A stretch of DNA of 32,000 nt, taken from Candidatus Arthromitus sp. SFB-rat-Yit (lineage in GTDB: Bacteria; Bacillota; Clostridia; Clostridiales; Clostridiaceae). Every line of letters begins with the position of its first letter. Position 1 is the first letter of the stretch. This document shows, one piece after another, positions 7,442 through 32,000 of this stretch. The notes under the pieces were generated by a model, which saw only the letters and a list, made by a program, of their open reading frames with translations, did no database searches and was not told the DNA's origin. The stretch lies in NCBI RefSeq assembly GCF_000283555.1, contig NC_016012.1, forward strand, positions 720,001 to 752,000, read 5' to 3'. The position numbers and the translations under genes are program-made.

Positions 7442-8386
7442 ATGGAAAATAAAGAGTGCTCTATTATAATATCTGATTTTTTGGATTATTTGTCTGGTAT
7501 TAAAGGGGCATCCGAAAAAACGATAAAAGAGTATCGTATAGATCTGATTGGTTTTTTTAATTTTATTATAAAAAAAAGAATGAATTTAAAAATTCGACAT
7601 CAGGAAATGGATTTAGAGACCCTTAAAAAAGTTTCAATAAGTGATATGTATGCTTATGTAAGATATATCGATAAAGAGCGTTTAAACGCTCATAATGCAC
7701 GTGCCCGAAAAATTTCTTCGTTAAGAACATTTTATACTTATCTTACAGACAAAATTAAGGTTATTGATAAAAATATTGCTTCTGAATTAGAAACTCCAAA
7801 AATTCCTAAGCGTAATCCTATTTATCTTGATCTTGAAGAATCGAAAAAAGTTTTATCTACCTTAGAACCTGATAAAAAGTTTTATACTCGTGATTATTGT
7901 ATTATTTCTATGTTTTTGAATTGTGCTTTAAGATTGTCAGAACTCGTTTCTATTAATATCGAAGATATAGATTGGGTAAATAATTCTTTATCTATTATAG
8001 GTAAGGGTAATAAAGAAAGAATAATTTATTTAAATGAAATGGTTTTGAATTCTATAAAGAATTATTTGAAAGATCGTAATAAATATCGAATTAAAGAAAG
8101 TTTTAAAAATGCATTATTTATAAGCTCTGTTGGTCAAAGGATTAGCAATAGAGCTGTAGAAGAAATGGTTAAGAAACATGTGAAAAATTCTAGCATTGAT
8201 AAGAAGATTACTCCTCATAAGTTAAGGCATACTTCGGCTACTCTAATGTTTAAGTATGGAAAGGTTGATATACGAACGCTTCAAAAAGTTTTAGGTCATG
8301 AAAATATTTCCACAACGCAAATATATACGCACGTTGATGATGAAGGAATCAAAAATGCTTTTAACTCTAATCCCCTTAATTTATGA
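7442..8386 (+). CDS. Tyrosine recombinase, XerC/XerD family
   Basis: Full catalytic set is visible: ALRLSEL (Arg), GKGNKER (Lys), HKLRHT (His-x-x-Arg), LGHENI (His), IYTHV (Tyr). An N-terminal SAM-like core-binding domain is present. Confidence 0.85.
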   Translation: MENKECSIIISDFLDYLSGIKGASEKTIKEYRIDLIGFFNFIIKKRMNLKIRHQEMDLETLKKVSISDMYAYVRYIDKERLNAHNARARKISSLRTFYTYLTDKIKVIDKNIASELETPKIPKRNPIYLDLEESKKVLSTLEPDKKFYTRDYCIISMFLNCALRLSELVSINIEDIDWVNNSLSIIGKGNKERIIYLNEMVLNSIKNYLKDRNKYRIKESFKNALFISSVGQRISNRAVEEMVKKHVKNSSIDKKITPHKLRHTSATLMFKYGKVDIRTLQKVLGHENISTTQIYTHVDDEGIKNAFNSNPLNL

Positions 8387-12451: not shown

Positions 12452-12461
12452 AATTACATCT

Positions 12462-16489: not shown

Positions 16490-17653
16490 TTATTTTCCAA
16501 TCTCTTTAAAAGTCAAAAGCTTATCTCTATAATATTCGTATTGTTTCTTCCTGGCTTCAATTTCTGCAGGAAGTCCTTCGGTTAAATCATTGCAAAGCTT
16601 GTCAAACTTATCGAGTATTGAAACTATTCTTTCTTGTTCTTCTAAGGAGGGAAGAGGAATTTCTATATCTAATAAATTACTCGGAGTTACTCTAATAACT
16701 TTTGTTCCATGTGCTAACCTACGTTTTTGCGTAAAAAACATTTCTGTATAAAAATAATAAGCTAGATAAGATGGGTTTTGATTATGTTTAATAATTACAG
16801 CATCTCCACTAATTGCAGCATCTTCATCTCCCAACCAAACTAAACACTTACATAAATCTTTAAGATTTTCGCTCGTTACTGCCATTATGATATCATTCTT
16901 CTGAGCTTTCTTTGATTTTTCAAAAATTTCTCCCTCAACAAAACTAATTGTATTTTTAACTTTCATTCCATATTTTGTATATATCTGCCCATAATGAATA
17001 CATGGAAATCCTTCATCTCTAAAATCTTTTTTCTGAAAATTTCCACCTCTAATTATCGTTGCAACATCCTTGAGTTTTACCCTCGGCACATCATCACCAA
17101 ACGTAAATAGCTTATCTCTATAATACTCATACTGTTTCTTTCTTGCTGTAAGCTCTGCTGTAAGCTCTGCTGTAAGCTCTGTAAACGAATCTAAAATATG
17201 TACAATCTCTTCTTGAACTTCTAGGGGTGGAATTGGGATCTCAAACTTCTCTATCATGGGTTTTCTTATAGATTTTACAGTTGCACTTACAGCCTTTTTC
17301 AAAATAAATTTTTTGAAAAAGACACAAAAATAATAATACACAAACTTTACATTAATTAAATTTCCAGTAAAATGTATCCTATAAACTCTTTGATGAATAG
17401 CATATTTCCCATTTATATAATGATATATCTCTCCAATCCTACCTTCTCCAGGTATAATAATTGCTTCCTCATCATACTCCCATTCATTTTTTCTTTTTAC
17501 AATTTGTGAACGTATAAAAAATGGATAATTCCCACCTTCCTCTGCTTCATTACCATTACTACTTCCAGTAGTAATCTCTGCTAAATTTTCAATTGCTTTA
17601 TACTCAACGCCATCAGGACAAAGTTTTTTTATCAATTCATCTATATTGCTCAT
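16490..17653 (-). CDS. hsdS: Type I restriction-modification specificity subunit HsdS (two TRDs, type IC-like conserved regions); orphan
   Basis: Two target-recognition domains are separated by the central conserved region ELTAELTAELTARKKQYEYYRDKLFTF and closed by the C-terminal EIEARKKQYEYYRDKLLTF. No hsdM or hsdR is present in the window, and there is no obvious SD before the ATG. Confidence 0.9.
   Translation of the reverse strand: MSNIDELIKKLCPDGVEYKAIENLAEITTGSSNGNEAEEGGNYPFFIRSQIVKRKNEWEYDEEAIIIPGEGRIGEIYHYINGKYAIHQRVYRIHFTGNLINVKFVYYYFCVFFKKFILKKAVSATVKSIRKPMIEKFEIPIPPLEVQEEIVHILDSFTELTAELTAELTARKKQYEYYRDKLFTFGDDVPRVKLKDVATIIRGGNFQKKDFRDEGFPCIHYGQIYTKYGMKVKNTISFVEGEIFEKSKKAQKNDIIMAVTSENLKDLCKCLVWLGDEDAAISGDAVIIKHNQNPSYLAYYFYTEMFFTQKRRLAHGTKVIRVTPSNLLDIEIPLPSLEEQERIVSILDKFDKLCNDLTEGLPAEIEARKKQYEYYRDKLLTFKEIGK
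17145..17180 (-). repeat. Three perfect copies of a 12-bp tandem repeat (gctgtaagctct; encodes ELTA x3) in the hsdS central conserved region
   Basis: Copies at 17145-17156, 17157-17168 and 17169-17180 are identical. A partial fourth copy (gtaa) follows. Confidence 0.95.
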
Positions 17654-18241: not shown

Positions 18242-19399
18242 TTAAGAATTTATAAAAGTAAATCCCCATCCGTCTGTATTTGAAGTAGATCCCGAAGAGC
18301 TTCCTCCACTGCTACCGCTACCACTTCCATTTGAACTAGATGAATTATTTGTCTTAAAATTAACATTTATAATTTCCTCTATAAGTCCAGCCCCTGGGAA
18401 ATTCGCAAGTATTACACCACAAAACTTAACATCGTTATCTACAATATAATCAAAAGTTAAAGTATTTGTGCCTTCAAAGGCAATAGTTGAGAAAATTCCA
18501 AGTCTATTAACTCTTGGAAAATCTGGATAATATGAATTAAATCCTGGTGTAGTAAGTCCAGTTGATAATCTATTAGCATCCGTTCCAGAACTAACATGAC
18601 CACTTGCAACAAAGTAAGGTAATGCTCCACCTTGTCCAGCTATATTATTTTCATATCTAATGCTAGGATTAGGTGAGTTAGATGTTTGATATAATTGATT
18701 TTTTACCTTTTGCCATTTTGAATATAAATCCCAATTAGTTGCAAGATAATTGTCGGCTTGTATTGAGGCATTTTCCTCATAAGGTATAGTCTTCCATCTT
18801 CTTCCCTTTGTTTCATAATCAGCAAGAAGAATTATTTGACCTCTAGCGTCACCTAGTCTAGGGTTTGTTGTTTTAGATCCATCAAATATATAATGATCTA
18901 ATTTGTCTTTTTCTAAAACTGTTTGAACTTGATAAGCAAAGTTACCTGCACTATCTCCACTCTGAGTTACTTTTAAAAGTACAGTTTCATCTCTGTGTTT
19001 ATCAAGAAACTCCCCTATTGTTTTTACAACATCTGATAAACTATGTCCCAAAGAAATACCTTCTTTGTACACTTCGAACTTATTTTGCTCTATATTTTTA
19101 ACCCAGATATCTATATATCTTATTCCAGATTCGAGTTGTGTTTTAAGATCCATACTTTGAGTTAAAGTAAAGTCGGTATGATCTCCATATGCCATAGATT
19201 GATTTGTACCTGGTATACTCAATCTATTTATTAGAATATCATCACTTAAGCCAGACATCCAATTAGGTTTACTCAAACCCACATTACTATCATGAGAATA
19301 TGAACTATGCTTATGTGCATTTGCCCTAATAGGAATTATAAGTAAACTAAAACACAATAAAAAAGATAAGAACTTCAAAAACTTTTTCAATTGTTTCAC
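18242..19399 (-). CDS. Secreted PI-PLC X-domain (bacterial phosphatidylinositol-specific phospholipase C fold) protein with substituted catalytic residues and a Ser/Gly-rich tail
   Basis: Signal peptide ends ..IPIRANA/HK. It aligns without gaps to my recollection of B. cereus PI-PLC (WM..L....RLSIPGT.., TQ..D...Q...G.R..DI, GDARGQIILL vs GDARGKIVLL). The likely start is TTG 19390, after GAGGTG. Confidence 0.8.
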   Translation of the reverse strand: MKQLKKFLKFLSFLLCFSLLIIPIRANAHKHSSYSHDSNVGLSKPNWMSGLSDDILINRLSIPGTNQSMAYGDHTDFTLTQSMDLKTQLESGIRYIDIWVKNIEQNKFEVYKEGISLGHSLSDVVKTIGEFLDKHRDETVLLKVTQSGDSAGNFAYQVQTVLEKDKLDHYIFDGSKTTNPRLGDARGQIILLADYETKGRRWKTIPYEENASIQADNYLATNWDLYSKWQKVKNQLYQTSNSPNPSIRYENNIAGQGGALPYFVASGHVSSGTDANRLSTGLTTPGFNSYYPDFPRVNRLGIFSTIAFEGTNTLTFDYIVDNDVKFCGVILANFPGAGLIEEIINVNFKTNNSSSSNGSGSGSSGGSSSGSTSNTDGWGFTFINS

Positions 19400-19575
19400 C
19401 TCATGAAATTTACAAACTTTAGTTTAAGTTTAGATTTATTAAAATTTCGTTTATTTCCTAAGAATACTTTACCATGTATAGCAAAAAATTTAAATACTTT
19501 ATTAAAAAATAATTTATAATTTATTAACAATATGCTATTATAATCATAAAAATTAATTATTATAGGAGTTAAAGA

Positions 19576-19950
19576 ATGAATAAAAATAAACTTTTAATTA
19601 AGTTTACATCAGTTGCTTTGCTATCATCTGTTATTTCTTTAGGATTCATCGGACAGATATCTAGTGCAATGTTACGACTTCCTATGAAATTAACTAGTGG
19701 AGGGCTTTTAGGTTTATTAAAAAAGCCATTTACCTCAAGTGCTTCATCATCACCATTTGTAAGAGGTGGATATGGTAGAAATCCTGTTCGATATACAACT
19801 GAAACGGATTCAGGATATTCATTTGATAGAGGCGGTTTTGGGAGAGTAGCTGTAAGATTCCCTGATAGTAGTAGACAGAACTTACCAAAATTCAATAGGC
19901 ATAGACAATATGGTGGGGGTAATTTCCAAGTAGGTAGGGCTAATAGTTAA
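19576..19950 (+). CDS. Small secreted cationic Gly/Arg-rich protein (paralogue A), unknown family
   Basis: RBS AGGAG sits 7 nt before the ATG. Sec signal MNKNKLLIKFTSVALLSSVISLGFIGQISSA. The mature part carries RGGYGR / RGGFGR / GGGNFQVGR repeats. The N-terminus is paralogous to the next gene. Preferred over the antisense ORF 19569-19895. Confidence 0.65.
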   Translation: MNKNKLLIKFTSVALLSSVISLGFIGQISSAMLRLPMKLTSGGLLGLLKKPFTSSASSSPFVRGGYGRNPVRYTTETDSGYSFDRGGFGRVAVRFPDSSRQNLPKFNRHRQYGGGNFQVGRANS

Positions 19951-19996
19951 TTTGACATATATTATATTTTGTAATTTTTAATAAGAGGTATTAATA

Positions 19997-20311
19997 ATGA
20001 ATAAAACTAAACGTTCAATTGTTTGTAAATCAGTTGCAGCTTTGTCATTGGCTTTCACGTGTTTAGGGTTTTATACTAAAGAATCTAATGCGATAAGATT
20101 TCCAAAATTATCACCATTAAAATTACCAACTAATCTTCCAGATGTTACATTAGGACCAATATGTGGTAAAACTAGTAAAGGTTCAAATCAATTACCTGGG
20201 GGAAGGGATTCTATAGTTTTAAAATCTTTTGGAGGAGGTCAAACTCAGAGTAGTAGTCAAAATGGACCTGCAGATCCAAATCTTGGACTTTTCAGACTCG
20301 TTTGTCGCTAA
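19997..20311 (+). CDS. Small secreted cationic Gly/Pro-rich protein (paralogue B), two Cys, unknown family
   Basis: RBS AAGAGG. Signal MNKTKRSIVCKSVAALSLAFTCLGFYTKESNA. The mature N-terminus IRFPKLSPLKL parallels MLRLPMKLTS of paralogue A. Confidence 0.65.
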   Translation: MNKTKRSIVCKSVAALSLAFTCLGFYTKESNAIRFPKLSPLKLPTNLPDVTLGPICGKTSKGSNQLPGGRDSIVLKSFGGGQTQSSSQNGPADPNLGLFRLVCR

Positions 20312-20346
20312 ATTTCAGCTTAACAATTATAAACTTTAAATGTGTG

Positions 20347-20384
20347 CGGTGTAATTACCTTTTCAGGATATTACGCCGTTTTTT
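20347..20384 (+). terminator. Rho-independent terminator after the small-protein gene pair
   Basis: CGGTGTAAT / ATTACGCCG stem (one G-U pair), 14-nt loop, followed by T6. Confidence 0.55.
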
Positions 20385-20386
20385 AT

Positions 20387-20430
20387 TAATAAAATTATTA
20401 TTTAATTTTAAAATATTGATATAATACATA
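20387..20430 (+). repeat. Direct repeat copy A (44 bp, contains the extended -10 TGATATAAT)
   Basis: taataaaattattatttaattttaaaatattgatataatacata is 42/44 identical to 22643-22686. Confidence 0.85.
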
Positions 20431-20477
20431 TAGGTAGGGCTAGAAGTTAGTTTAAAAAAATAATATAGAATTCTCAA

Positions 20478-20526
20478 AACAGTGTTTCGTTATTTTCATA
20501 TAAGGGAAATAACAACACTGTTTTTT
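20478..20526 (+). terminator. Strong terminator hairpin with no gene in front of it
   Basis: AACAGTGTT(tc)GTTATTT - 11-nt loop - AAATAACAACACTGTT, followed by a T-run (20521-20526). Confidence 0.6.
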
Positions 20527-20560
20527 GCTGTTTTTACTCTTTATGAGAAATTTATTGATT

Positions 20561-20610
20561 TATAACTGTTATATGTGTTATGCTGTTATTGTAGATTATA
20601 TAACAGTGTA
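20561..20610 (+). promoter_or_regulatory. Candidate operator/promoter region of the YtrA-type operon
   Basis: Perfect palindrome TATAAC-T-GTTATA at 20561-20573 and a related half-palindrome TATATAACAGTGTA at 20597-20610, just upstream of the RBS. Confidence 0.3.
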
Positions 20611-20629
20611 ATCAGTTAGGAGGGTGATC

Positions 20630-21004
20630 GTGAAACTTATTATTTCAAATGTATCGGGTATTCCAATATATGAGCAAATTAAGCAACAAATCAAATCTGC
20701 AATTATGTCTGGTGATCTACAGAAAGGTGAAACACTTCCTTCATTACGTACCCTTGCTAAAGAATTAAAAATTAGTGTTTTAACTGTAACAAGAGCATAT
20801 ACAGAATTGGAACAAGAAGGTTTTGTAAAAAATATTCAGGGGCGAGGTTGTTTTGTTTTAGATCAGGGATCCGAACTTTTAAAGGAACAGTTGATTTGTA
20901 AAATAGAGAATAATTTATTGGAGGCAATAAATACGGCCCGCGTTGCAAATATTTCCAAAGAAGATTTACATAACCTTCTAAATATTTTAATGGAGGAAAA
21001 ATAG
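20630..21004 (+). CDS. GntR-family transcriptional regulator, YtrA subfamily
   Basis: Winged-HTH LPSLRTLAKELKISVLTVTRAYTELEQEGFV with the short C-terminal domain typical of YtrA (about 125 aa). The start is set at GTG 20630, 6 nt after AGGAGG; the track start is 20624. Confidence 0.85.
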   Translation: MKLIISNVSGIPIYEQIKQQIKSAIMSGDLQKGETLPSLRTLAKELKISVLTVTRAYTELEQEGFVKNIQGRGCFVLDQGSELLKEQLICKIENNLLEAINTARVANISKEDLHNLLNILMEEK

Positions 21005-21865
21005 ATGGAGAATTGCTTAGAGGTAAAAAATCTATCAAAGTCTTTCAAAAATTTTCAATTAAATGATATTACTTTTACACTTCCAAAAGGCTATATTATG
21101 GGATTAATTGGTCCGAATGGATCTGGGAAAACAACTATAATAAAGCTCATATTAAATATGTTAAAACGTTCAGATGGTGAGGTTAAAATTTTAGGACTTG
21201 ATAATATTAAAAATGAAAAAGAAACAAAAATGAATTTGGGTGTTGTTTGTGATTCAAATTATTTTAGTGATGAGTGGAAAGTGTCACAGATTGAAAAGTC
21301 CGTATCGTTATTTTATAAAAATTGGGATACACAAAAATTTTCAAATATGTTGAAGAAATTTAATATTATCACTTCTAAAAAAATAAAAGAGCTTTCTAAG
21401 GGAATGCAGATGAAACTTATGCTCGCATATGCTTTTTCATATAATGCAAAACTATTGATATTAGATGAACCTACCAGTGGTCTTGATCCTGTTTCAAGAG
21501 ATGAACTCCTTGATATCCTATTAGAATATATTGAGGATGGCGAACACAGCGTTCTATTCTCTACTCATATTACTGAGGATTTAGAGCGTATTGCTGATTA
21601 TATTACTTATATTAAACATGGAGAATTATTTTTTAGTGGTGGTAAAAATGAGTTTGTAGATATGTTTCGAGTAGTCAAAGGAGGAAATGAGGAATTGTCT
21701 ATGAATTTAAAGAGAAAAATTGTTAATATTAGGAATTTTTCGACTGGCTTTGAAGCTCTTATTAAAACAGAAAATTTAAAAGACTTTGAGCATTTAAATA
21801 TTGAGAAAGCAACTATTTATGATATTGTTGTATTTACGAGTAATAGAGGTGAACATCATGAGTAA
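21005..21865 (+). CDS. ABC transporter ATP-binding protein
   Basis: Walker A GPNGSGKTT, signature LSKGMQMKL, Walker B LLILDEPTSGLD, H-loop FSTH. Confidence 0.9.
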   Translation: MENCLEVKNLSKSFKNFQLNDITFTLPKGYIMGLIGPNGSGKTTIIKLILNMLKRSDGEVKILGLDNIKNEKETKMNLGVVCDSNYFSDEWKVSQIEKSVSLFYKNWDTQKFSNMLKKFNIITSKKIKELSKGMQMKLMLAYAFSYNAKLLILDEPTSGLDPVSRDELLDILLEYIEDGEHSVLFSTHITEDLERIADYITYIKHGELFFSGGKNEFVDMFRVVKGGNEELSMNLKRKIVNIRNFSTGFEALIKTENLKDFEHLNIEKATIYDIVVFTSNRGEHHE

Positions 21866-22502
21866 TATTTTGAAATTATCAAAGTTGGATTTTGATCTAG
21901 TAAAACCTTACTTGAAATCACTATATTTAAAAATGATAATACCTATTTTTTTTGTAGCTATCTCTCAATCACTAACGGCAGGGATTTCATTTGCGATGTT
22001 TTTGGTTGTTACAACAATAACATCATATATTTTCTCCGTTACAGAAAAGAATTCTATGGAACGATTTTATAGTGTTTTACCAATCAAAAAAAGTGAGGAA
22101 GTTATTGGACGATATATTTTTGTTATAATATCAGGTTTAGTTTCATTAATATTTTATTTGATTTTCCAATATGGCGTATTAGTAATTTTAAATAAGTCTA
22201 TTAGTATTTATGAGATTATATTTTCTGGTTTTATAGGTATTGTTCTTTTTACTTTTTCTGCAGTTTTTCAACTTCCTGGGTATTATAAATTTGGATTTAT
22301 CAAAGGTAAAGTATTTATGTATATACCTCTGTTATTATTTTTCATAACAAATTTTTCCTCTATTAATTTAACTAAATTATTTCAGGTTATTGGATATAAT
22401 TCACCTATTCTATTAATATCATCGCTTATAATCTTTGTAGTTATAGCTTGGATTATTTCTATTTTGATATCTATTAATATATTAAAAAATAGAGAAATGT
22501 AG
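21858..22502 (+). CDS. ABC-2-type integral membrane protein (partner of the YtrA-associated ATPase)
   Basis: Hydrophobic protein of about 6 TM segments. ATG 21858 overlaps the ATPase stop (ATGAGTAA) and follows AGAGGTGA. The track start at 21801 is an upstream extension. Confidence 0.7.
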   Translation: MSNILKLSKLDFDLVKPYLKSLYLKMIIPIFFVAISQSLTAGISFAMFLVVTTITSYIFSVTEKNSMERFYSVLPIKKSEEVIGRYIFVIISGLVSLIFYLIFQYGVLVILNKSISIYEIIFSGFIGIVLFTFSAVFQLPGYYKFGFIKGKVFMYIPLLLFFITNFSSINLTKLFQVIGYNSPILLISSLIIFVVIAWIISILISINILKNREM

Positions 22503-22578
22503 TGTAAAACTTATTATAAATAGTATTTTAGGTGATAAAATGTAAAATTAACAGGAGTAAATAAGCTTAAAATATGTG

Positions 22579-22618
22579 CAGTATAACTATTCTGTTATAG
22601 AATGTTATACTGTTTTTT
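22579..22618 (+). terminator. Rho-independent terminator of the GntR-ABC operon
   Basis: CAGTATAAC...GTTATACTG outer stem with inner ATTCT/AGAAT pairing, followed by T6. Confidence 0.65.
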
Positions 22619-22642
22619 ATATCTATTTAAAACGTTAAAAAC

Positions 22643-22686
22643 TAATAAAATAATTATTTAATCTTAAAATATTGATATAATACATA
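22643..22686 (+). repeat. Direct repeat copy B (44 bp, TGATATAAT at 22673-22681; probable aminotransferase promoter)
   Basis: taataaaataattatttaatcttaaaatattgatataatacata is 42/44 identical to 20387-20430. Confidence 0.85.
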
Positions 22687-22718
22687 ATAAAATGTTTTAA
22701 TAATTTTTATTAAATGAG

Positions 22719-23927
22719 TTGGGATGTGATTGTTTGTTAATCTCAAATAGAATAAGAAATACAAAAATGTCAGCGATTAGAAAGTTAACACCTTTCGCTA
22801 AAGAAGCTAAACAAAAAGGATTAAAAGTTTATCATATGAATATAGGTCAGCCTGATATTGATACACCTGAAGAATATTTTGAGGGACTTAAAAATTATCA
22901 TAAAAAAGTATTGGGATATGAACCTTCAGAAGGAATTGATGAATTAAGATCTGCTTTTTCAAATTTTCTTGGAAAAAATAACATAGATTATTCACCCGAA
23001 GAAATTTATGTAACAAATGGTGGGAGTGAAGGTTTATTATTTTCATTTCTCATGATATGTGATGAGGGGGATGAAATTCTTGTACCCGAACCATATTATA
23101 GCAATTACAACACAATCGCAAATTCTTGCGGTGTAAAATTGGTATCTTTCGAAACCTTTATAGAAGATGGATTTCATATAAAGAGCAAAGAATCTATAGA
23201 AAAAGTAATTACATCTAAGACAAAAGCAATTTTATATTCAAATCCATCAAATCCAACTGGAGTTGTTTATTCAATAAAAGAACTTCAAATGATTGCGGAT
23301 GTTGCACATGAAAACAATTTATATATCATATCAGATGAGGTTTATCGTGAACTTGTGTATGATGGTATAAAATATGAATCTATATTCTCTATCGAAAAAA
23401 TAAGGGAACATTTAATATTAATAGATAGTCTATCTAAAAGATATAGCGTTTGTGGTTCAAGAGTTGGAATGATAGCAACCAAAAATAAAAATTTAAGAGA
23501 AGAAATTGTTAAACTTTGTCAATCACGTTTAAGTACATCATCTGTTGAACAATATTCGGCATTAAATCTTTTGAAAATTCCTACATCTTATATTGAAAAC
23601 ATAAGGGATATATATCAAGAAAGAAGAGATGTCGTTTGCGGAATTTTAGGAAAGATAGATGGAGTTAAGATATATAAACCTGAAGGAGCATTTTATTTAA
23701 TAGCCTCATTACCTGTTGATGATGCTGAAGATTTTTGTAAATGGTTATTAACTGATTTCAACATAAACAATGAAACAGTTATGTTCGCTCCAGCTGAAGG
23801 GTTTTATATGAATAATGAGGTGGGAAAATCTCAAATAAGATTATCTTATTGTATATCAGTTAAGGATTTAGAAAAGGCACTTCATATTTTAAAAGAGGGG
23901 CTAAGGTCTTATAATAACAAAAATTAA
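22719..23927 (+). CDS. Class I/II pyridoxal-phosphate aminotransferase (aspartate aminotransferase-like)
   Basis: NIGQPD, SNPSNPTG, and SLSKRYSVCGSRVG (PLP lysine). The start is uncertain: TTG 22719, TTG 22734 or ATG 22767. The conserved SNRI....SAIRK argues for one of the first two. Confidence 0.85.
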   Translation: MGCDCLLISNRIRNTKMSAIRKLTPFAKEAKQKGLKVYHMNIGQPDIDTPEEYFEGLKNYHKKVLGYEPSEGIDELRSAFSNFLGKNNIDYSPEEIYVTNGGSEGLLFSFLMICDEGDEILVPEPYYSNYNTIANSCGVKLVSFETFIEDGFHIKSKESIEKVITSKTKAILYSNPSNPTGVVYSIKELQMIADVAHENNLYIISDEVYRELVYDGIKYESIFSIEKIREHLILIDSLSKRYSVCGSRVGMIATKNKNLREEIVKLCQSRLSTSSVEQYSALNLLKIPTSYIENIRDIYQERRDVVCGILGKIDGVKIYKPEGAFYLIASLPVDDAEDFCKWLLTDFNINNETVMFAPAEGFYMNNEVGKSQIRLSYCISVKDLEKALHILKEGLRSYNNKN

Positions 23928-23952
23928 AGGAGAGCAAATTATGCTCTCCTTT
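23926..23952. terminator. Bidirectional terminator between the convergent aminotransferase and uracil permease genes
   Basis: AAAGGAGAGCA-aatta-TGCTCTCCTTT, a perfect 11-bp stem. Confidence 0.7.
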
Positions 23953-23953
23953 A

Positions 23954-25162
23954 TTATTTTAAACTTTTAAATTCTTTGTGGTTTAGTATTCTATTTAATA
24001 TCAATCCAACAATGGCTGCAAGACTTAATCCTGTTATAGACACATTTGGAGTTATAGGGATACCGATTGATATTCCTTTATTAGATAAATAACTTGTACC
24101 TATTCCTATTAAAATAATTGCTATTATTACAATTAGATTTTTTATACTTTTAAAAGATTTGCTATCTCTTATCGTTCTTATTCCTATATAGCTTATCATC
24201 GAAAATAACATTATACTTATTCCACCCATAACTGCCGATGGAATACTTTGAAGGAATCCACCGAATACTCCAATAAATGAAAGAAGTATTGCGTATATAG
24301 CTGTATATCTTAACAAAGAAGGATTATAGTTTTTTGTGATTGCAAGGACTGCAGTGTTTTCACCATATGTTGTGTTTGCAGGTCCTCCTATAAATCCTGA
24401 TACTACTGTAGCAAGCCCATCTCCAAGAAGAGTTTTATTTAATCCAGGATCTTCTATAAAATTCTTTCCTACAACTGTTCCATTAGTTGTCATATCTCCA
24501 ACGTGTTCCATAAATACAGCTATAACTATTGGAGCTATTATTATTGTTGCCTCAAGGCTAAACTTTGGTAGTGTAAAGTTTGGAATTTGAAATAAACTAG
24601 CGTTTGTTATTGAGCTTATATCCACTCCACCAGAAATTAAACTTAGTAAATATCCAAAACCAACAGCTATTAAAATTCCTAATTGCTTTAAAAATCCTTT
24701 CCCAAATACATTTATTAATATCGATGTAACTAGTGTTATTAGTGCTATTACTACATTTTCAACTGCCATATTAAGAGCACTAGGTATCAAATTAAGACCT
24801 ATGACAGCAATCATAGCACCTGTTACTTGAGGGGGAAAATATTTTTTAATCTTATCGATACCGATAAATTTGATTACGAAAGAAAGAAGAACATATATAA
24901 GACCTGCAACAATGATACCACCTTGTGCAAAAGCTTTATCACCGTTTGAAATTTGATTTGCTGATATAACAACTGGTATGAATGCAAAACTAGATCCCAA
25001 AAATACTGGAACTTTACCTTTTGTACAAAGATGAAAGATTAAAGTACCAAGACCTGCACAAAATATTGCGACAGACGGATCAAATCCAGTAAGTATTGGA
25101 ACCAGTACTGTTGCACCAAACATTGCTAAAAGGTGTTGAATTGATAAAATAAAATTTTTCAT
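23954..25162 (-). CDS. pyrP: Uracil permease (NCS2 family)
   Basis: 12-TM-type protein with NCS2 motifs (FGATVLVPILTG, YGENTAVLAITKNYNP). It lies immediately downstream of pyrR, as in Bacillus. Confidence 0.88.
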   Translation of the reverse strand: MKNFILSIQHLLAMFGATVLVPILTGFDPSVAIFCAGLGTLIFHLCTKGKVPVFLGSSFAFIPVVISANQISNGDKAFAQGGIIVAGLIYVLLSFVIKFIGIDKIKKYFPPQVTGAMIAVIGLNLIPSALNMAVENVVIALITLVTSILINVFGKGFLKQLGILIAVGFGYLLSLISGGVDISSITNASLFQIPNFTLPKFSLEATIIIAPIVIAVFMEHVGDMTTNGTVVGKNFIEDPGLNKTLLGDGLATVVSGFIGGPANTTYGENTAVLAITKNYNPSLLRYTAIYAILLSFIGVFGGFLQSIPSAVMGGISIMLFSMISYIGIRTIRDSKSFKSIKNLIVIIAIILIGIGTSYLSNKGISIGIPITPNVSITGLSLAAIVGLILNRILNHKEFKSLK

Positions 25163-25236
25163 AAAAAACCTCCTGAATAATTAGGAGAACATGTCTCCTT
25201 TTCTAGCATCTCTGTGCTAATTTAAAAGGGATTAAT
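25163..25236 (-). promoter_or_regulatory. Putative PyrR-dependent attenuator between pyrR and pyrP
   Basis: The minus strand reads ..UUAGCACAGAGAUGCUAG.. (stem AGCA/UGCU, loop CAGAGA, resembling the CCAGAGAGG PyrR box). It is followed by the hairpin AGGAGA-catgt-TCTCCT and AAUUAUU, then the RBS GGAGG. Confidence 0.4.
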
Positions 25237-25767
25237 TTATTTTTTAGTTATAGTCACTGAATCTTCTACATCATCAATTTCTTTTAAATTAACGTGTATG
25301 ATTTCATCTTTTGATGTTGGAATATTTTTACCAACATAATCGGGGCGTATTGGAAGCTCTCTATGCCCCCTATCAATCAAAACAGCTAGTTGTATAGATT
25401 TAGGTCTATCAATATCTATTATTGCATCCAACGCACTTCTGATTGTCCTTCCTGTGTATAAAACATCATCAATTAAAATAATAATCTTATTTTTTATATC
25501 AAAATCTATTTTTGAATTATTTATAGTTGGCTCTTCTGAAATTTTTTGGAGATCATCTCTATAAAGACTTATATCAAGTTCACCAATATTCAAAACTTTA
25601 TTTTCAAAATTTTTAATTTGTTGAGCTATCCTTTTAGCGAGATAAATCCCTCTAGTTTTAATACCAATAAGTACAATGTTATCAATTCCTTTATTTTTTT
25701 CGATGATTTCATGACTTATTCTTGTTATAGATCTCTCTATAGATTTTTCATCAAGCAACTTTTTCAT
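25237..25767 (-). CDS. pyrR: Bifunctional pyrimidine operon regulator / uracil phosphoribosyltransferase PyrR
   Basis: 176 aa with PRPP-binding loop [21 protein letters not shown] and an N-terminal [22 protein letters not shown] typical of PyrR. Confidence 0.92.
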
Positions 25768-25795
25768 AAATTAAATACCTCCACTCTTAACATAA

Positions 25796-25828
25796 AAAAG
25801 TTCCCTACCACAAGGATAGAGAACTTTT
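25796..25828 (-). terminator. Leader terminator (attenuator) about 30 nt upstream of pyrR
   Basis: The minus strand reads AAAAGUUCUC - 13-nt loop - GGGAACUUUU followed by UU. It lies downstream of the extended -10 TGTTATAAT (25947-25955, minus strand). An alternative pairing partner GAGAUUACUUUU occurs earlier in the leader. Confidence 0.5.
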
Positions 25829-25960
25829 ATAGATAAAATGGAAGTTATACAAAATAACGTCTAAATATAAAATAACTTTTTGTAGTATTAAAAAGTAATC
25901 TCGATCCTTATGATATCACTGTATCATTTAAAAAACCTCAATTAATATTATAACATTAAT

Positions 25961-26698
25961 TTAAAAATTTTCAATAATATTTTTACGTTTTATCTGTATA
26001 AAATTTTTGAATTTTTGAACATCTGTATTAATTATAAGCTCATGAGGAAAATCAACTTCTTTAATTAAATTGAATGCAAGTTCATTTTCTCCAACTTGTG
26101 TACAAAAATGAGAGTCACTCCCTATTGTTATGAATGCTCCTACATTTTTACATATTTTCAAAATCTCTTTAAGATTTTCATAAACATTTGCCCTACTGCT
26201 AGTTGGTTTCAAAGAAGAATTATTTACTTCTATTAAAGTATTTGTGTCTTTTGCTTTTTTAACAACTGCTTCGAAATCAATTGGAACATTTCCATTTTCA
26301 GGATGACCGATTATGTTTACATATGGATTATCCATAACTTTAAGAAAAGCATTCGTATTTTTTTCGACTGTACTCACGCTTAAACAAATACTGTGAAAAC
26401 TTGCAATACAAACATCTAATTTACGCAATATGTTTACAGGAAGATCAACGCTTCCATCGTAATCTATAATGTTTAATTCTACTCCCATAAAAATCTCAAC
26501 ACCATGAATAAATTTATCAATTATTTTAAAATTTTTAAAATATATTTCATGAGCAGAGCCGGGCATATTCGGAGCATGATCTGTAATACACAGAAGTTTT
26601 AATCCTTTTTTGCTTGCATAAAATGCCATTTCGCTTAATGTTGAATACGCATGACCGCTAGCGATTGTATGAGAATGAGTGTCTATTAAAAGTTTCAT
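25961..26698 (-). CDS. PHP-domain phosphatase (YcdX-like)
   Basis: MKLLIDTHSHTIASGHAYSTLSEM matches the YcdX N-terminus; further His/Asp metal ligands (ITDH, ASFH, GHPE, GSDSH). Start at ATG 26698, after GGAG. Confidence 0.75.
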   Translation of the reverse strand: MKLLIDTHSHTIASGHAYSTLSEMAFYASKKGLKLLCITDHAPNMPGSAHEIYFKNFKIIDKFIHGVEIFMGVELNIIDYDGSVDLPVNILRKLDVCIASFHSICLSVSTVEKNTNAFLKVMDNPYVNIIGHPENGNVPIDFEAVVKKAKDTNTLIEVNNSSLKPTSSRANVYENLKEILKICKNVGAFITIGSDSHFCTQVGENELAFNLIKEVDFPHELIINTDVQKFKNFIQIKRKNIIENF

Positions 26699-26713
26699 AT
26701 TTAACTCCATTCT

Positions 26714-27664
26714 TTAAGTTTGAATTTTAAATTTATTTTTTGGCATTACTTTAAATAAGTAAATGATGTAATGAGCTACCGTGTAAAATACCAATACTGA
26801 TGCAATAATTATTTCTATGTTAACAATTATTGGTAACCATGAAGGAATCATCATAGCCGCACTAAAATTAGCCACAATTTGTTTCAATGCAGTTGCCGTA
26901 ATTACAAATGGAAATGTAAATGCAGCAAAACTAGGATAAAATTGTAATTTTAAAAATTTTGGAAGTTGAGTTAAAACAATAAAATATATAGTTTGAGCTA
27001 TGCACCCACCAATAAATAGTAAAGTGAGTGATTTGTTTTCGAAAACAGCACAATATCCTGCAATTGTTAAGCTCATGGGTGCTGTATAAAGACATAATAG
27101 AGGTTTTAACGGCACATCCACCTCATGTTTAAAATATCTAAATGTAACTAGCACAAATAAAACAATAAAAGCAGCAAGCCCTAAAACAACTATAATTTTA
27201 CCAACAGCTTGTAATTTAAATTGGACGCATGTAACTGCAGCAACTATAGGTCCAACATATGCAACGAAATAAGTTGGGAAAATATCTTTAAGTGAAAAAT
27301 TGGAAAATCTTCGTATACTGAAATAAATAATAAGAGAAATATGACCAATAAAGGCAAATATCCAAATCATAAATGCAAGCAATATTAAACGTTCGGGTAT
27401 ATAGGTTGTTAATACCATAATAGCCATAAAAAACGCAGCAAAAACACTTGAAACCACAGGACTCCTAAATTCTTCTATAAATTCTTGAGCACAAAAAATA
27501 AATTTAGATGCTACCATCAATATAAATATAAGTGCCAAAATACCGCAAAGTGCATATACAAACATAGAATATGGCTTTAACAAATTTCCTAATGATGCCA
27601 ATCCTAATCCCACACCAGCTATAGGCAAAGGTATCTTTGATAAAAATTCTTTCATGTTATTCAT
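26714..27664 (-). CDS. TDT-family (TehA/Mae1-like) anion transporter
   Basis: About 10 TM segments, 316 aa. The N-terminus KIPLPIAGVGLGLASLGNLL resembles Firmicute TehA/C4-dicarboxylate-malate transporter homologues as I recall them. No HMM check was possible. Confidence 0.55.
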   Translation of the reverse strand: MNNMKEFLSKIPLPIAGVGLGLASLGNLLKPYSMFVYALCGILALIFILMVASKFIFCAQEFIEEFRSPVVSSVFAAFFMAIMVLTTYIPERLILLAFMIWIFAFIGHISLIIYFSIRRFSNFSLKDIFPTYFVAYVGPIVAAVTCVQFKLQAVGKIIVVLGLAAFIVLFVLVTFRYFKHEVDVPLKPLLCLYTAPMSLTIAGYCAVFENKSLTLLFIGGCIAQTIYFIVLTQLPKFLKLQFYPSFAAFTFPFVITATALKQIVANFSAAMMIPSWLPIIVNIEIIIASVLVFYTVAHYIIYLFKVMPKNKFKIQT

Positions 27665-27746
27665 TCCCTCTTAAATTTATTTATTACACTATTTAGTTTA
27701 ATAAAATTTAACGAATAATTACAAGTTTGATTTTTAGATATAAAAA

Positions 27747-27770
27747 GCAACTAATTGTGATTCTAGCTGC
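27747..27770 (-). terminator. Terminator overlapping the stop codon of the kinase-like gene
   Basis: The minus strand reads GCAGCTA-gaatcacaat-TAGTTGC followed by TTTTT. Confidence 0.45.
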
Positions 27771-28719
27771 TTAATTCGTATTCTGCATACTTTTTTAATT
27801 TATTTATCAATTTTTCATTGTCAAATTCCTTATTTCTCAAATAAAATTTAACACCAAATTTTATAAATTTGTATGGAAACTTCATAGATAAATCAAATAA
27901 ACGTTTTTCTATATCGTTGAATTTATAACGATGATTATAAAATTCAAATATTTCATTTAACAATCTCATATCAAATTTATTTTTATAAAACACTCTACGA
28001 GCAAACCTCGCTAGATCGTAAACAAAATTATTAATGCATATTCCACCGAAATCTATGAGATAAATTTTTTTGTTTTTTAATATGAGATTTTGGTAATACA
28101 AACTATTATGACATATTGATTTATTATTGGTTAAAAAATCCTTTATATCGCTTTTGGATAAATCTGATATAATGCTATGTAATATTTTTAACGCTGTATT
28201 TATATTTTCATAATAAAACATATCTATAGAATTCCACGATTTTTTATTTAAAATGATATTTCTTATATTATAAAGATCTATAAGATTTTTATCGAAAACT
28301 ATTTCCCAATTTGAATTATCTTCTATACTCAAATCTGAATAGTCTATACCAGCAAGAGATTTATGAAATAAATAAATAGAATGTATAGATCTCTTGATAT
28401 TTTTAATTTTCCTAAGATCAACTTCAATTCCATCAACCCATGAAAAACAAGAATAATATTTATTACCCAATTTAAAATAAAATTGATTATTATTATTGTG
28501 AAAAATTTTCTGACAAAACTTAAAATTATTTTTATGAAGATAATGAAGAACTTTTTGTATGTTCAATATTTTTTTATCTGACCTAAACTCTTTCAATAAA
28601 ATATTATGACCTTTCGTTGATATCTTATAAACACTCCGAATTTTTTTGATTTTATAATTTTTTATACCATAACTTTCCAGAGTTCTATCTAAATTTTCAT
28701 TGACTTCTACCATATTCAA
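27763..28719 (-). CDS. CotS/aminoglycoside-phosphotransferase-fold kinase-like protein
   Basis: C-lobe pattern ICHNSLYYQNLIL(x6)IYLIDFGG...YDLARF corresponds to the H-x-D-x4-N / IDFD signature of the CotS/APH/choline-kinase families, but with HNS in place of HGD. Confidence 0.7.
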   Translation of the reverse strand: MNMVEVNENLDRTLESYGIKNYKIKKIRSVYKISTKGHNILLKEFRSDKKILNIQKVLHYLHKNNFKFCQKIFHNNNNQFYFKLGNKYYSCFSWVDGIEVDLRKIKNIKRSIHSIYLFHKSLAGIDYSDLSIEDNSNWEIVFDKNLIDLYNIRNIILNKKSWNSIDMFYYENINTALKILHSIISDLSKSDIKDFLTNNKSICHNSLYYQNLILKNKKIYLIDFGGICINNFVYDLARFARRVFYKNKFDMRLLNEIFEFYNHRYKFNDIEKRLFDLSMKFPYKFIKFGVKFYLRNKEFDNEKLINKLKKYAEYELSS

Positions 28720-28964
28720 ATTCCTTTAAATAATTATAATACAACATATTAATATACAATAACATCAATATTGTTACTATATTCATCATTTTACCTCTTT
28801 TTAAAATAGTTTTTGGCTAATAACTTTATTAATCCAGTAATTCAAGATATAATAATACTTAATATAAAAATTGTTCAGTAAAATACAGGAAACACATTCT
28901 ATAACAAATAACATAAGTTTTGTAATTTTACTATATTTTAGGATTCAGAAAGGACAAAATGTGA

Positions 28965-30192
28965 ATGAATAAATCTATGATAAACAATATTTCTTCATTG
29001 CTTGAAGATGTTCGTAAGGATATTGCCTATCTTCAGGAACGAGAAGATAATGAAGTCCGCCAAGCAGTAACTGATAGAAGACAAGTTATTACACAGTACA
29101 TAGAAAGTATGTTGGGTGAGTCACTTAATAATCATATTAGTGCTAATAAGCTTGATGATGCTGAATGGCTTGGTGTAATATACCACATTGTCGACTATTT
29201 GGCTGAACCATTCGAGCCTACCAATGCAATTGATCGTGAATTTTGGAGCTTTCTTAAATATATTTGGCAAAACACTGAGGAGACACTCGTTAAAAAGATG
29301 AAAGAAGTATTGAACACTTGGGAAAAAACGCCGAATGGCAAGGCGTTATACTGTGGTTTTGTGGAGTATTTTGAAAAATATCCACTTTGGGGAACATTTT
29401 CCCCTGAACAAGGTGATTTTGATACGTTTGAGCGACGTGCAGCAGTACTCAAACGCCACAGTTATGACTTTTTGTGGCTATTCCGACGTTTAAATGATTA
29501 TCTTTCCAAATCCACATTAATGGCAATTTTATTCAATTGGGCTGTTCTAGATATTGTGTACCCACAAAAGGTAAAGTCGATTTTTAAGGATTATTGGGAG
29601 CCAGATATATTCTCAAATAATGTCGATGATGTACTTGTAGATGTTGGGGCATATGTTGGCGATTCTATTGCAGAGTATTTAAATATGTATGGAACCAAAT
29701 ACAAGCGAATTTATGCTTATGATATTTCACCTGATATTTGCGATACCATGAGGGCAAATATAGAAAAATGGAATCTTCATGATGTAATTATCTGTAACAA
29801 AGGGACAGGTTCACATACAAGTGAAATGTTTTTGAATCGCTCAATCAATGACGCCTCTGCAAACCAATTAACATCAGACGAAAACAGTGGACAACGCATC
29901 AAGGTAGTTGCATTAGATAAAGATCTTCCTGAACCGGTTACCTTTTTGAAAATGGACATCGAAGGTGCTGAATACGACACCCTATTAGGATGTAAAAATA
30001 TTATTTCTAGACAGTCACCCCCCCCCCCCGCCAAAACTTGCAATTTGTGTTTATCACGGGTATGATGACCTCTGGCGTATTCCATCATTGATCGATAACA
30101 TGAATCCGAACTATGAAATGTATTTGAGACACTACGGTGGTAATTTGATTCCAACAGAATTTGTGTTACTTTGTCGTCCACGAAAAAACTGA
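28965..30192 (+). pseudogene. FkbM-family SAM-dependent methyltransferase interrupted by a frameshift at a poly-C tract (candidate phase-variable gene, currently OFF)
   Basis: Frame 1 (28965-30065) carries the SAM motif VDVGAYVGDS and FLKMDIEGAEYDTLLG, then runs through C12 into AKTCNLCLSRV*. The frame starting at 30031 reads PKLAICVYHGYDDLWRIPSLIDNMNPNYEMYLRHYGGNLIPTEFVLLCRPRKN* (stop 30190-30192), which is the conserved FkbM C-terminus. Confidence 0.85.
30018..30029 (+). repeat. Homopolymeric C12 tract inside the FkbM methyltransferase gene
   Basis: Counted directly: cac followed by 12 C, then gcc. C11 or C14 would restore the reading frame. Confidence 0.95.
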
Positions 30193-30233
30193 TTCCTAAA
30201 AATATCTAAAACTTTTAATATTTTTATAATTTT

Positions 30234-30275
30234 ATCGATCTGCAATACTAATATTATTAAACCTTGCAGATCGAT
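30234..30275. terminator. Hairpin between the convergent methyltransferase and 120-aa ORF
   Basis: Perfect 12-bp stem ATCGATCTGCAA / TTGCAGATCGAT with an 18-nt loop. T-rich on the + side. Confidence 0.6.
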
Positions 30276-30286
30276 TATTTGTTGTA

Positions 30287-30649
30287 TTATAAATTAATGT
30301 TTAAATGATTAAGTCCCACGATTATATCGGATATTTTCATATATTTAAAATTAAAATTTTCGTCTACTTTTTTAAATTGATCTATTTCGTAGAAATAATT
30401 TTTAAATTCATTTTTGCCAAAAATATATCGACACCTACTGAAATCATACGAAATTTCATTTATGTAATTATCCAAAATATTTTTCTTTAGTTGATCCTGT
30501 GAAAATTTTATATATGTAAGATTATCATGATTCATATCTATATCAAAAGATTTATTGATTTTTATTTCTTCCAAGTCATTAATAATACTATAATTAAATT
30601 TCATACTACCATTATTTAAATAACTATCATTTATTAAACAATAAAACAT
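30287..30649 (-). CDS. Hypothetical protein (120 aa, no recognisable domain)
   Basis: Only ORF evidence. Very AT-rich with a weak RBS. Coding status is uncertain. Confidence 0.4.
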   Translation of the reverse strand: MFYCLINDSYLNNGSMKFNYSIINDLEEIKINKSFDIDMNHDNLTYIKFSQDQLKKNILDNYINEISYDFSRCRYIFGKNEFKNYFYEIDQFKKVDENFNFKYMKISDIIVGLNHLNINL

Positions 30650-30805
30650 AAAACTGTACCTGACTTTCTAAAAATAAATAATGCTAATATTATATTCATA
30701 TTTTTTTTATTTATTATTGTAAATTTTAACACGCTTGTTATTTAATTTAAGAAAAATTTATGGGGAAGATAGTAAATAAAAGAAACTAATCCATCTATCT
30801 TATAT

Positions 30806-30836
30806 AAAAAGGCATAGTCGTAATAACGACTATGCC
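30806..30836 (-). terminator. Rho-independent terminator of the surface-protein gene
   Basis: GGCATAGTCG-taataa-CGACTATGCC, a perfect 10-bp stem followed by TTTTT on the minus strand. Confidence 0.7.
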
Positions 30837-30850
30837 GATATTTTATAAAT

Positions 30851-32000
30851 TTATTTTTCAATTCCACCTACTTCGATTTCATAAATTCTAACAGCAGAGT
30901 CTGAACCTTGCGTTGGTTTTGTAGCTGTTACTCTTACATATCTTGCAAAAATTGCTTTAAATGTATCTACTGTATTAGAATTAGAATTTTTCTTAACATT
31001 AACAACTTCAGTAAAATTAGTTCCATCTTCACTAACTTCTATAGTGTAATCTGATGTATTCATGGAATCACTTTCTCCACCAGCCTCAGCATGAGCCATT
31101 TTAACTTCACTAACAAGAGCTACATTGCCAAGATCAACTGTTATACTGTGAGGAGGTGTTCCAGTAGCACACCATTTTGTATCTAGCTTTCCATCAAAAG
31201 CAAAGTTTGGAGCTTCATTTGCATTAACAAAGCTTGATGCTTCTGCATTCTTTGAATTAGATAAATTTTTGAAGTTATCTGCATCTTTTGTTACAGTTAT
31301 ATACTCTTCTAGTACTTTTACATTTTCTCCAGAAGAATTTTTAGCTTTTAATGAAACTTTGTACGTTCCCTCATTTTCATATTTTACTTTTGGTGAAAGA
31401 TCAGTGCTAGTTTGGATATTTGCTCCTTCAAATATCCATTCTAAATTTTCAGTAACTTTTGAACTTAAACTTGTAAATGTTATTTCTTCACCTGGTGAAA
31501 CGAGTGTTTTTGAAGCTGTAAAATCTGCCTTAGGTATACTATTATTTGGCCACTCTATTTTAGTTCTAATACCTTTTCCTCTAGACAAATCATTGTTTAC
31601 AGCTACAACTTCTAAAGTTGTGGTGTTTGAATTATTATCTCTTGGTAATGCATTTATAAAGTAATTTTCATTAATTGAGGCACCTAAAAATGTTAAAGAC
31701 TCATCCTCATTTACTTTATAAATTTCATACTGCTTAACATCTTTTTTATTTGATGCATTAAATGAAAGTCTAACTCCTGCATATAGATCTTCTTCTTCAA
31801 ATACAACATCATCAACATTTACTGATGTAATATCTAAAACGTTTACTTTTTTAGAATCTGTTATGCTTATATTTCCAAAATTAATGTTTATATTATTACT
31901 ATCTTTATCGCTTAAAATTTTATAAGATATCGAACGTATAGTTTTTCCAGAAAATTTTGATACATCGAAACCAACTTTTACCCACTCACTGGAAACATTT
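30851..32000 (-). CDS. Large secreted/surface protein, C-terminal part: PKD domain + F5/8 type C (discoidin/CBM32-like) domain (5' end lies outside the window)
   Basis: The reading frame stays open from 31588 to the window edge (checked codon by codon), so the TTG at 31588 is internal. PKD-like: ADFTAS...GEEITFTSLS...WIFEG...PKVKYENEGTYKVSLKAKN. Discoidin-like: AFDGKLDTKWCA...ITVDLG...YTIEVSEDGTNFTEV...ARYVRV...RIYEIEV. Confidence 0.8.
   Translation of the reverse strand, partial: NVSSEWVKVGFDVSKFSGKTIRSISYKILSDKDSNNININFGNISITDSKKVNVLDITSVNVDDVVFEEEDLYAGVRLSFNASNKKDVKQYEIYKVNEDESLTFLGASINENYFINALPRDNNSNTTTLEVVAVNNDLSRGKGIRTKIEWPNNSIPKADFTASKTLVSPGEEITFTSLSSKVTENLEWIFEGANIQTSTDLSPKVKYENEGTYKVSLKAKNSSGENVKVLEEYITVTKDADNFKNLSNSKNAEASSFVNANEAPNFAFDGKLDTKWCATGTPPHSITVDLGNVALVSEVKMAHAEAGGESDSMNTSDYTIEVSEDGTNFTEVVNVKKNSNSNTVDTFKAIFARYVRVTATKPTQGSDSAVRIYEIEVGGIEK

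Follow-up and report, generated by a model that had tools for sequence, protein, structure and literature searches.

A poly-C tract in an FkbM-family methyltransferase gene of rat SFB as a candidate on/off switch

Homopolymer contingency genes, in which the length of a mononucleotide run decides whether a protein is made in full, are an already known class, and the mechanism that we consider here is itself classical. In Bacillus subtilis, swrA is switched by a poly-A8/A9 run, with reversion shown experimentally, and in Campylobacter jejuni the capsule O-methyltransferases are homopolymeric-G contingency genes. Cj1295 of C. jejuni is likewise described as a homopolymeric-G contingency gene (Hitchen et al. 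2010, PMC3068675, as cited in PMC13317340) and serves as an example of those in its flagellin-glycosylation and capsule loci. FkbM methyltransferases are also known parts of flagellin glycosylation islands, among others in Geobacillus (PMC5109656) and Enterobacteriaceae (PMC4875605). The locus presented here lies in a 32,000-nt stretch of Candidatus Arthromitus sp. SFB-rat-Yit (contig NC_016012.1, positions 720,001–752,000; hereafter, the window) and resembles the C. jejuni loci in that a G/C homopolymer of ~9–12 nt sits inside a putative glycan-modifying gene of a gut-associated flagellated bacterium and its length sets the reading frame. It differs from them in several respects: C. jejuni has ~20–30 such loci, lacks MutS and MutL, and its switching has been shown experimentally, whereas SFB is a Gram-positive clostridial symbiont with one known tract, with mutS and mutL present, with OFF lengths alone observed and with the gene located outside a glycosylation island. 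The likeness to swrA lies in a candidate frameshift switch by a mononucleotide run, in a Firmicute, for a trait probably related to the flagellum; however, swrA is a regulator with a poly-A run and the SFB gene has a poly-C run in a presumed glycan-modifying enzyme.

The tract consists of 12 cytosines at positions 30018–30029 of the forward strand, read as four CCC codons and followed by a G at 30030. A first-pass annotation made from the sequence had reported it within an FkbM gene and had judged it unlikely to arise by chance. Both statements held: no other C or G homopolymer reaches 6 nt in the 32 kb of the window (28.9% GC) and, at a C content of ~14%, only ~1e-4 runs of C12 are expected per 1.5-Mb genome (our own arithmetic), so that the tract lies far beyond chance. 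Codon usage points the same way, CCC being rare among the proline codons of the other window genes (13 of 226) and absent from the 15 proline codons that the methyltransferase gene has outside the tract. The annotated frame, which had been said to end within 12 codons of the tract, translates the run as PPPP and continues for 11 more codons up to a stop (ORF 28965–30065, + strand); its 366-aa product is identical to that of the reference annotation of SFB-rat-Yit (BAK81212.1/WP_014094672.1). The second frame that had been noticed from 30031 onward is indeed open in translation, in the +1 register, with 53 stop-free residues (PKLAICVYHG...CRPRKN) and a stop codon at 30190–30192 (segment 30031–30192, + strand). 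The two frames can be joined by changing the tract length only: C11 and C14, the lengths proposed earlier as restoring an ORF of ~408 aa, give 408 and 409 aa, and C8 does so as well, with 407 aa. Among all lengths from 5 to 18, C5, C8, C11, C14 and C17 are in frame and the rest are out of frame, with a stop 11–20 codons past the tract. Repeat length alone thus sets whether the product is full-length or truncated, no second lesion being present, and the run exceeds the ~8 nt from which a mononucleotide repeat inside a gene is expected to be hypermutable, as in contingency loci (12 nt in the window and 10 nt in a second strain, see below).

The complete gene (28965–30192) is, from its sequence, a two-domain FkbM-family SAM-dependent methyltransferase, with methyl transfer as its predicted activity. 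The part located 5' of the tract (codons 1–351, 28965–30017, + strand) was read from the ORF listing and encodes an N-terminal domain of ~200 aa, helical throughout, and the SAM-binding portion of the FkbM domain, with Pfam and TIGR matches on residues 223–351; the part located 3' of it (30031–30192) encodes the strand beta5 (KLAICVYHG), one helix and the two final core strands. When conceptually repaired to C11, the protein scored above the curated cut-offs of both relevant profiles (45.7 bits for PF05050, cut-off 22.7; 59 bits for TIGR01444, cut-off 37.7), the outcome that the first-pass annotation had anticipated for an FkbM profile search. The SAM-binding motif VDVGAYVGDS and the family motif FLKMDIEGAEYDTLLG, which it had also pointed out, are present and both fall on invariant columns of a 47-sequence family alignment: D226, G228, A229, G232, D233 and S234 for the former, K329–G334 and E336 for the latter (KMDIEGAE, corresponding to the DIEGxE motif). 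Both gene halves align to the 47 homologues without stop or gap. The closest relatives form a 400-aa two-domain family of gut Oscillospiraceae and Lachnospiraceae, which share with the SFB protein the same Pfam domain and a full-length identity of 47–67%, helical N-terminus included. Unlike them, the SFB protein has a proline run, and its gene stands alone in a 1.5-kb cassette, with a CotS-like kinase gene on one side and an N-glycan-utilisation locus on the other.

A second tract-bearing strain was available as a 29.5-kb syntenic contig (L082) in the Logan assembly of SRR19621095, 99.15% identical over 13,037 bp to window positions 18969–32000. Its tract is C10, that is, in the other out-of-frame register, with a predicted product of 374 aa (P0121). 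Over these 13 kb, both sequences differ by 103 substitutions and four indel events. Besides the tract, the indels are an in-frame 3-nt one in a gene for a small secreted protein and two 1-nt gaps in AT-rich non-coding DNA (one of them at 20331), so that C12 versus C10 is the sole homopolymer indel across the compared region. Two T8 runs in it are unchanged from the window to L082. Past the window end, the GH85 gene contains a C7 run that has the same length in L082 and in a further SFB contig (L083). The methyltransferase gene carries ten substitutions between the two strains, all 5' of the tract, with dN/dS of 0.25 (0.217 for the neighbouring genes, 3,010 codons), and the 162 nt 3' of the tract are identical (0/162 differences). 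There is no further lesion in the gene in either strain, in agreement with the initial description of both halves as free of other damage. Tract length therefore differs amid conserved flanks (n = 2 strains, different sequencing technologies), and this difference without added disabling mutations, found in the comparison with a related genome that had been suggested as a check, means that the gene is not a fixed pseudogene of one frozen length. A re-assembly of DRR001117 also has C12; it presumably derives from the reference's own reads and is hence not biologically independent, which leaves two tract-bearing biological samples, one of them the 2011 reference. If the DRR001117 reads are pyrosequencing data, the count of a 12-mer is good only to ~1–2 nt. 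The same comparison revealed a divergence hot spot between rat strains in the gene for a 104-aa signal-peptide protein without Pfam match (19997–20311, + strand), with ~25–30 nt differences plus the in-frame 3-nt indel in or just past ~315 nt, over a background of 0.85%; this may be a fast-evolving secreted or surface protein.

Rat-type SFB also carry a second allele of the gene, which we call allele B, the tract-bearing one being allele A. Allele B is an intact 408-aa gene found at the same locus in five assemblies (L001 and L083–L086, from ENA and Logan) with 83% identity to the window gene (~17% DNA divergence). By comparison, the GH85, ROK, ABC, hypothetical and SBP genes of an allele-B contig are 97–99% identical to those of L082, with dS of 0.04–0.11. 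The divergent block extends from at least window position 28565 to ~30460 where, inside a gene encoding a 120-aa protein, identity jumps from 88% to 99%. This jump looks like a recombination breakpoint, as would fit an allele imported by recombination or a balanced one. All allele-B contigs end 147–398 nt upstream of the gene. At the tract site, allele B reads TCC CCA CCA CCA AAA (S-PPP-K), a run that is stable because it is interrupted. Distant homologues (47–67% identity) have a single invariant proline there (e.g., CAT CCC AAG), and a proline run is absent from all 47 aligned homologues, so that the site forms a series from one proline in distant homologues to a CCA-encoded PPP in allele B and an uninterrupted C run in allele A. 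A comparison of both alleles gives a dN/dS of 0.11 on the 5' side of the tract and of 0.08 on its 3' side (dS ~0.8–1.0); with values of ~0.1 on both sides, the C-terminal frame has been coding, and under purifying selection, for nearly all its history. One further allele-B copy (L106, Logan assembly of SRR10090101) has an independent nonsense mutation, CGA to TGA, at Arg164 (positions 888–890) and is otherwise intact, differing from L083 in 8 codons by nonsynonymous and in 5 by synonymous changes.

Searches for additional tract lengths retrieved none in frame. No in-frame allele-A protein was among the matches in a collection of 5.8 billion protein clusters, and an exact look-up in that collection of the products expected in the Yit background for C8, C9, C10, C11, C13, C14, C15 and C17 found none of them. 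Scanning JGI metagenomes with a 29-nt pattern across the site gave 0 matches and with CCAAAACTTGCAATTTGTGT 7 unrelated ones; neither JGI scan contributed extra allele-A samples. The lengths seen in nature are thus OFF in both tract-bearing samples (n = 2).

The structural consequences of the frameshift can be appreciated on an AlphaFold model of intact allele B built on the 47-sequence alignment (mean pLDDT 92.5). It consists of an all-helical N-terminal domain (residues 1–203), the region in which the first-pass annotation had recognised no motif and which both alignment and model indicate to be conserved across the family, followed by a class I Rossmann methyltransferase domain. Its best PDB match was 2PY6, the FkbM methyltransferase of Methylobacillus flagellatus (Foldseek E = 2.6e-14, rmsd 2.4 A over 257 columns). 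The repaired SFB-rat protein also matched 2PY6 by phmmer (E = 3e-16, residues 162–391, 24% identity) in an alignment that crosses the tract and pairs the 53-codon segment with residues 364–398 of 2PY6; together with the match to the family homologues, this bears out the identification of this segment as the conserved FkbM C-terminus. In the model, the proline site is a loop (350–354) between a helix (344–349) and a strand (355–359). 2PY6 has a similar fold with one proline where SFB-rat has 4–5, the prolines of the repaired protein making a 4-residue insertion with respect to it; since they are a loop insertion, in-frame changes of length should be tolerated. The frameshift removes the strand 355–359 (with the invariant C-x-Y-H-G-Y motif), the helix 366–377 and the strands 381–387 and 397–403. 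Because three core strands are lost, the truncated OFF product should be inactive according to the model.

The gene lies in a region with no counterpart in mouse SFB. In a blastn comparison with SFB-mouse-Japan (AP012202.1; L108 15438–15503), homology ends at window position 28756 and restarts at 30285; in the mouse strain, 64 nt separate the CotS-like gene from the 120-aa gene, with no methyltransferase homologue at the site. The interval 28757–30284 (+ strand), comprising the gene and its own flanking non-coding DNA, thus constitutes a rat-SFB-specific cassette, and it also stands out as a GC island (36–38% GC versus 21–22% in the flanks; GC3 0.31 versus 0.13–0.23). The GC3 of the methyltransferase gene (0.31) is the maximum in the window, far under the 0.48–0.76 of its relatives, which suggests an old, largely ameliorated horizontal acquisition. 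Expression signals are found at both ends. An RBS-like AAAGGA (28949–28954, + strand), read from the sequence 10 nt 5' of the ATG, is kept in allele B. Past the full-length stop, a hairpin with a perfect 12-bp stem and a U-rich tail (30234–30275; RNA fold z = -4.67) was found by folding and, having a long loop, missed by the terminator scan. Its stem is also kept in allele B, partly by G-U pairs in our reading of the alignment, and the hairpin probably acts as a terminator in both directions for the methyltransferase and 120-aa genes, which converge on it. A scan for consensus promoters gave no more matches than shuffled sequence.

On one side, the gene is flanked by the CotS-like kinase gene together with transporter and salvage genes and, on the other, by the 120-aa gene and a GH85/ROK/ABC/GH38 N-glycan locus. 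A functional link to the adjoining CotS-like spore-coat kinase was considered and rejected, as the adjacency arose by insertion of the cassette and is absent in mouse SFB. The downstream locus, for the foraging of host N-glycans, occupies window positions 30851–32000 (− strand) and continues in L082 (11885–21125); it encodes a GH85 endo-beta-N-acetylglucosaminidase with PKD and F5/8 type C domains, a ROK kinase, an ABC transporter and a GH38 alpha-mannosidase, and it is conserved in mouse SFB. A second frameshift in its GH85 gene, suspected from a 245-aa fragment in the ORF list, was also discarded: the translation is intact and the gene simply leaves the window. Intact mutL (10622–12484) and mutS (12462–15023) genes occur in the same window (10622–15023, − strand), 15 kb from the tract. 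Slippage should consequently be at least partly repaired, and SFB-rat-Yit is, on gene content, not obviously mismatch-repair deficient. Elsewhere, a Type I restriction-modification hsdS gene for a protein with two target-recognition domains (16490–17653, − strand) stands alone, hsdM and hsdR being absent from the window, and a tyrosine recombinase gene (7442–8386, + strand) lies ~8 kb from it.

As to the function of the enzyme, a scan of genome contigs with the repaired protein gave at least 80 loci, of use for the gene context of the family, with no SFB locus among the matches listed. Close homologues from Angelakisella and from MAGs of other Oscillospiraceae and Lachnospiraceae lie in clusters of the type CsrA-flagellin-large GT2-(epimerase, second GT2, dTDP-sugar isomerase)-FkbM, and flagellin was detected by tblastn 2–6 kb upstream in 6 of the 8 close-homologue loci with adequate flank. 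Since the homologues adjoin flagellin and GT2 genes, the family appears to comprise sugar methyltransferases of flagellin glycans, and O-methylation of a sugar in a surface (flagellin) glycan is the most likely role of the SFB enzyme, in line with the earlier guess that the gene was involved in glycan modification. Genes of this kind are classic targets of phase variation. The SFB gene is nevertheless an orphan: the association with flagellin and glycosyltransferase genes typical of a flagellin glycosylation island is seen in the homologues and not in SFB, where the 32-kb window contains no gene of either kind. Our literature search retrieved nothing on SFB flagellin glycosylation and no mention of the run accessions.

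The most probable reading, to which we give about an even chance, is that the tract is a hypermutable homopolymer on/off switch. The loop codon for one conserved proline would have grown into a run of 10–12 C in one of the two rat-type SFB alleles, and slipped-strand mispairing at replication would alter the length of the run. C8, C11 and C14 would yield the full-length enzyme of 407–409 aa and other lengths a null enzyme deprived of beta5–beta7 of the Rossmann core, the C12 of the reference and the C10 of L082 then being two different OFF frames. What we have in hand for such a switch is the 10–12-nt run, a polymorphism confined to the tract, its status as the sole lesion, its location in a tolerant loop and the constraint on both halves, to which the conserved RBS and the conserved terminator placed past the full-length stop can be added. 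That the change of length is reversible, that ON cells occur and that a surface glycan is the substrate we take by inference, and a selective benefit, for instance through varying surface structures that are antigenic or face TLR5, would be part of the same reading. Against the switch stand the small sample of two, the intact mutS and mutL, the orphan position of the gene within the 32 kb and the lack of any SSR phase variation of SFB in the literature that we searched. The OFF state of both strains and the absence of an in-frame allele-A protein from the collection searched also count against it, and loss of the gene is tolerated, as indicated by the allele-B nonsense mutation and the absence from mouse SFB. 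The first-pass preference for reversible ON/OFF switching over decay thus finds support in the length polymorphism and the lack of a second lesion, and meets difficulties in these last three points. They would be expected if a symbiont with a reduced genome were losing an accessory methyltransferase, a slip having inactivated a gene whose tract now drifts neutrally with no switch in use, a recent pseudogene, the main rival reading, that we regard as rather unlikely, albeit a serious possibility. It would account for C12 and C10 being both out of frame, in different frames, for the absence of an ON variant from the public assemblies searched, for the independent R164 nonsense mutation in allele B (SRR10090101), for the missing gene at the syntenic site of SFB-mouse-Japan and for an orphan whose glycosylation partners are absent in 32 kb; moreover, the 10 substitutions between strains do not reject neutrality on this short branch (binomial ~0.18, our own arithmetic). 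However, decay would have to have spared 1.2 kb from any second lesion in both strains and the C-terminal 162 nt from any difference between them, with dN/dS of ~0.1 against allele B on both tract sides and a between-strain dN/dS matching that of functional neighbours (0.25 versus 0.217). Allele B is, in addition, intact in five independent assemblies, and a C10–12 run is physically reversible while the remaining gene stays intact. The several lesions and/or the dN/dS near 1 of a decaying pseudogene were, accordingly, not observed, a comparison whose power is low for the recent branch. Under either reading, the 366-aa "FkbM family methyltransferase" of the public annotation is a truncated product.

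Other explanations concern the tract count itself or its decoding. Long G/C homopolymers are a classic weak point of pyrosequencing, and a lesser one of Illumina sequencing, so that either strain, or both, might truly have an in-frame tract (e.g., C11) and an ON gene. The reference dates from 2011, its sole confirmation re-assembles what are apparently the same reads, and the counts of 12 and 10 flank the in-frame 11. Even so, we deem a sequencing or assembly error improbable: two data sets, obtained with two technologies, would both have to be wrong and in opposite directions, the other homopolymers agree between both assemblies over 13 kb, and NCBI keeps the 366-aa truncated product. More improbable still, in our view, is recoding, by slippage of RNA polymerase or by tRNA-Pro slippage on CCC-C (+1 for C12, -1 for C10), which would make the locus leaky instead of OFF. 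Polyproline ribosome stalling and +1 slippage at CCC-N are established phenomena, and Tamas et al. are said to have described in 2008 how transcriptional slippage rescues frameshifted genes at poly(A) tracts in insect endosymbionts. Any register within a pure C run would, by inference only, re-pair perfectly, C12 reaches the C-terminal frame by a +1 shift, and continued constraint on that frame is compatible with recoding. Nonetheless, a stimulatory element is absent, and no single out-of-frame length is conserved, C12 and C10 needing opposite shifts. Leaky expression by slippage is thus conceivable, though unsupported.

Returning to the on/off switch, a broader scenario, which we advance only tentatively and consider rather doubtful, is that a flagellin-glycan methyltransferase was acquired horizontally and persists as two ancient alleles through recombination or diversifying selection, allele B being locked ON by its interrupted CCA codons and allele A carrying the poly-C switch, so that filaments would be stochastically methylated or unmethylated toward IgA, TLR5 and T cells. 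Our literature search turned up no SSR phase variation either in SFB or in clostridial flagellar glycosylation loci. If the gene is a fresh pseudogene, it would reflect the ongoing loss of accessory genes in a reduced genome, which is ordinary. If it is a switch, it would have no described SSR phase-variable predecessor in SFB and very few counterparts in Clostridia. SFB is the model commensal for the induction of Th17 cells and IgA and, to our knowledge, it is not genetically tractable; with a switch, tract length would offer a simple in vivo marker. Should the switch be reversible, it would suggest antigenic or innate-recognition variation in a symbiont, not a pathogen, at a locus that also has two 17%-divergent alleles in strains otherwise 98–99% identical.
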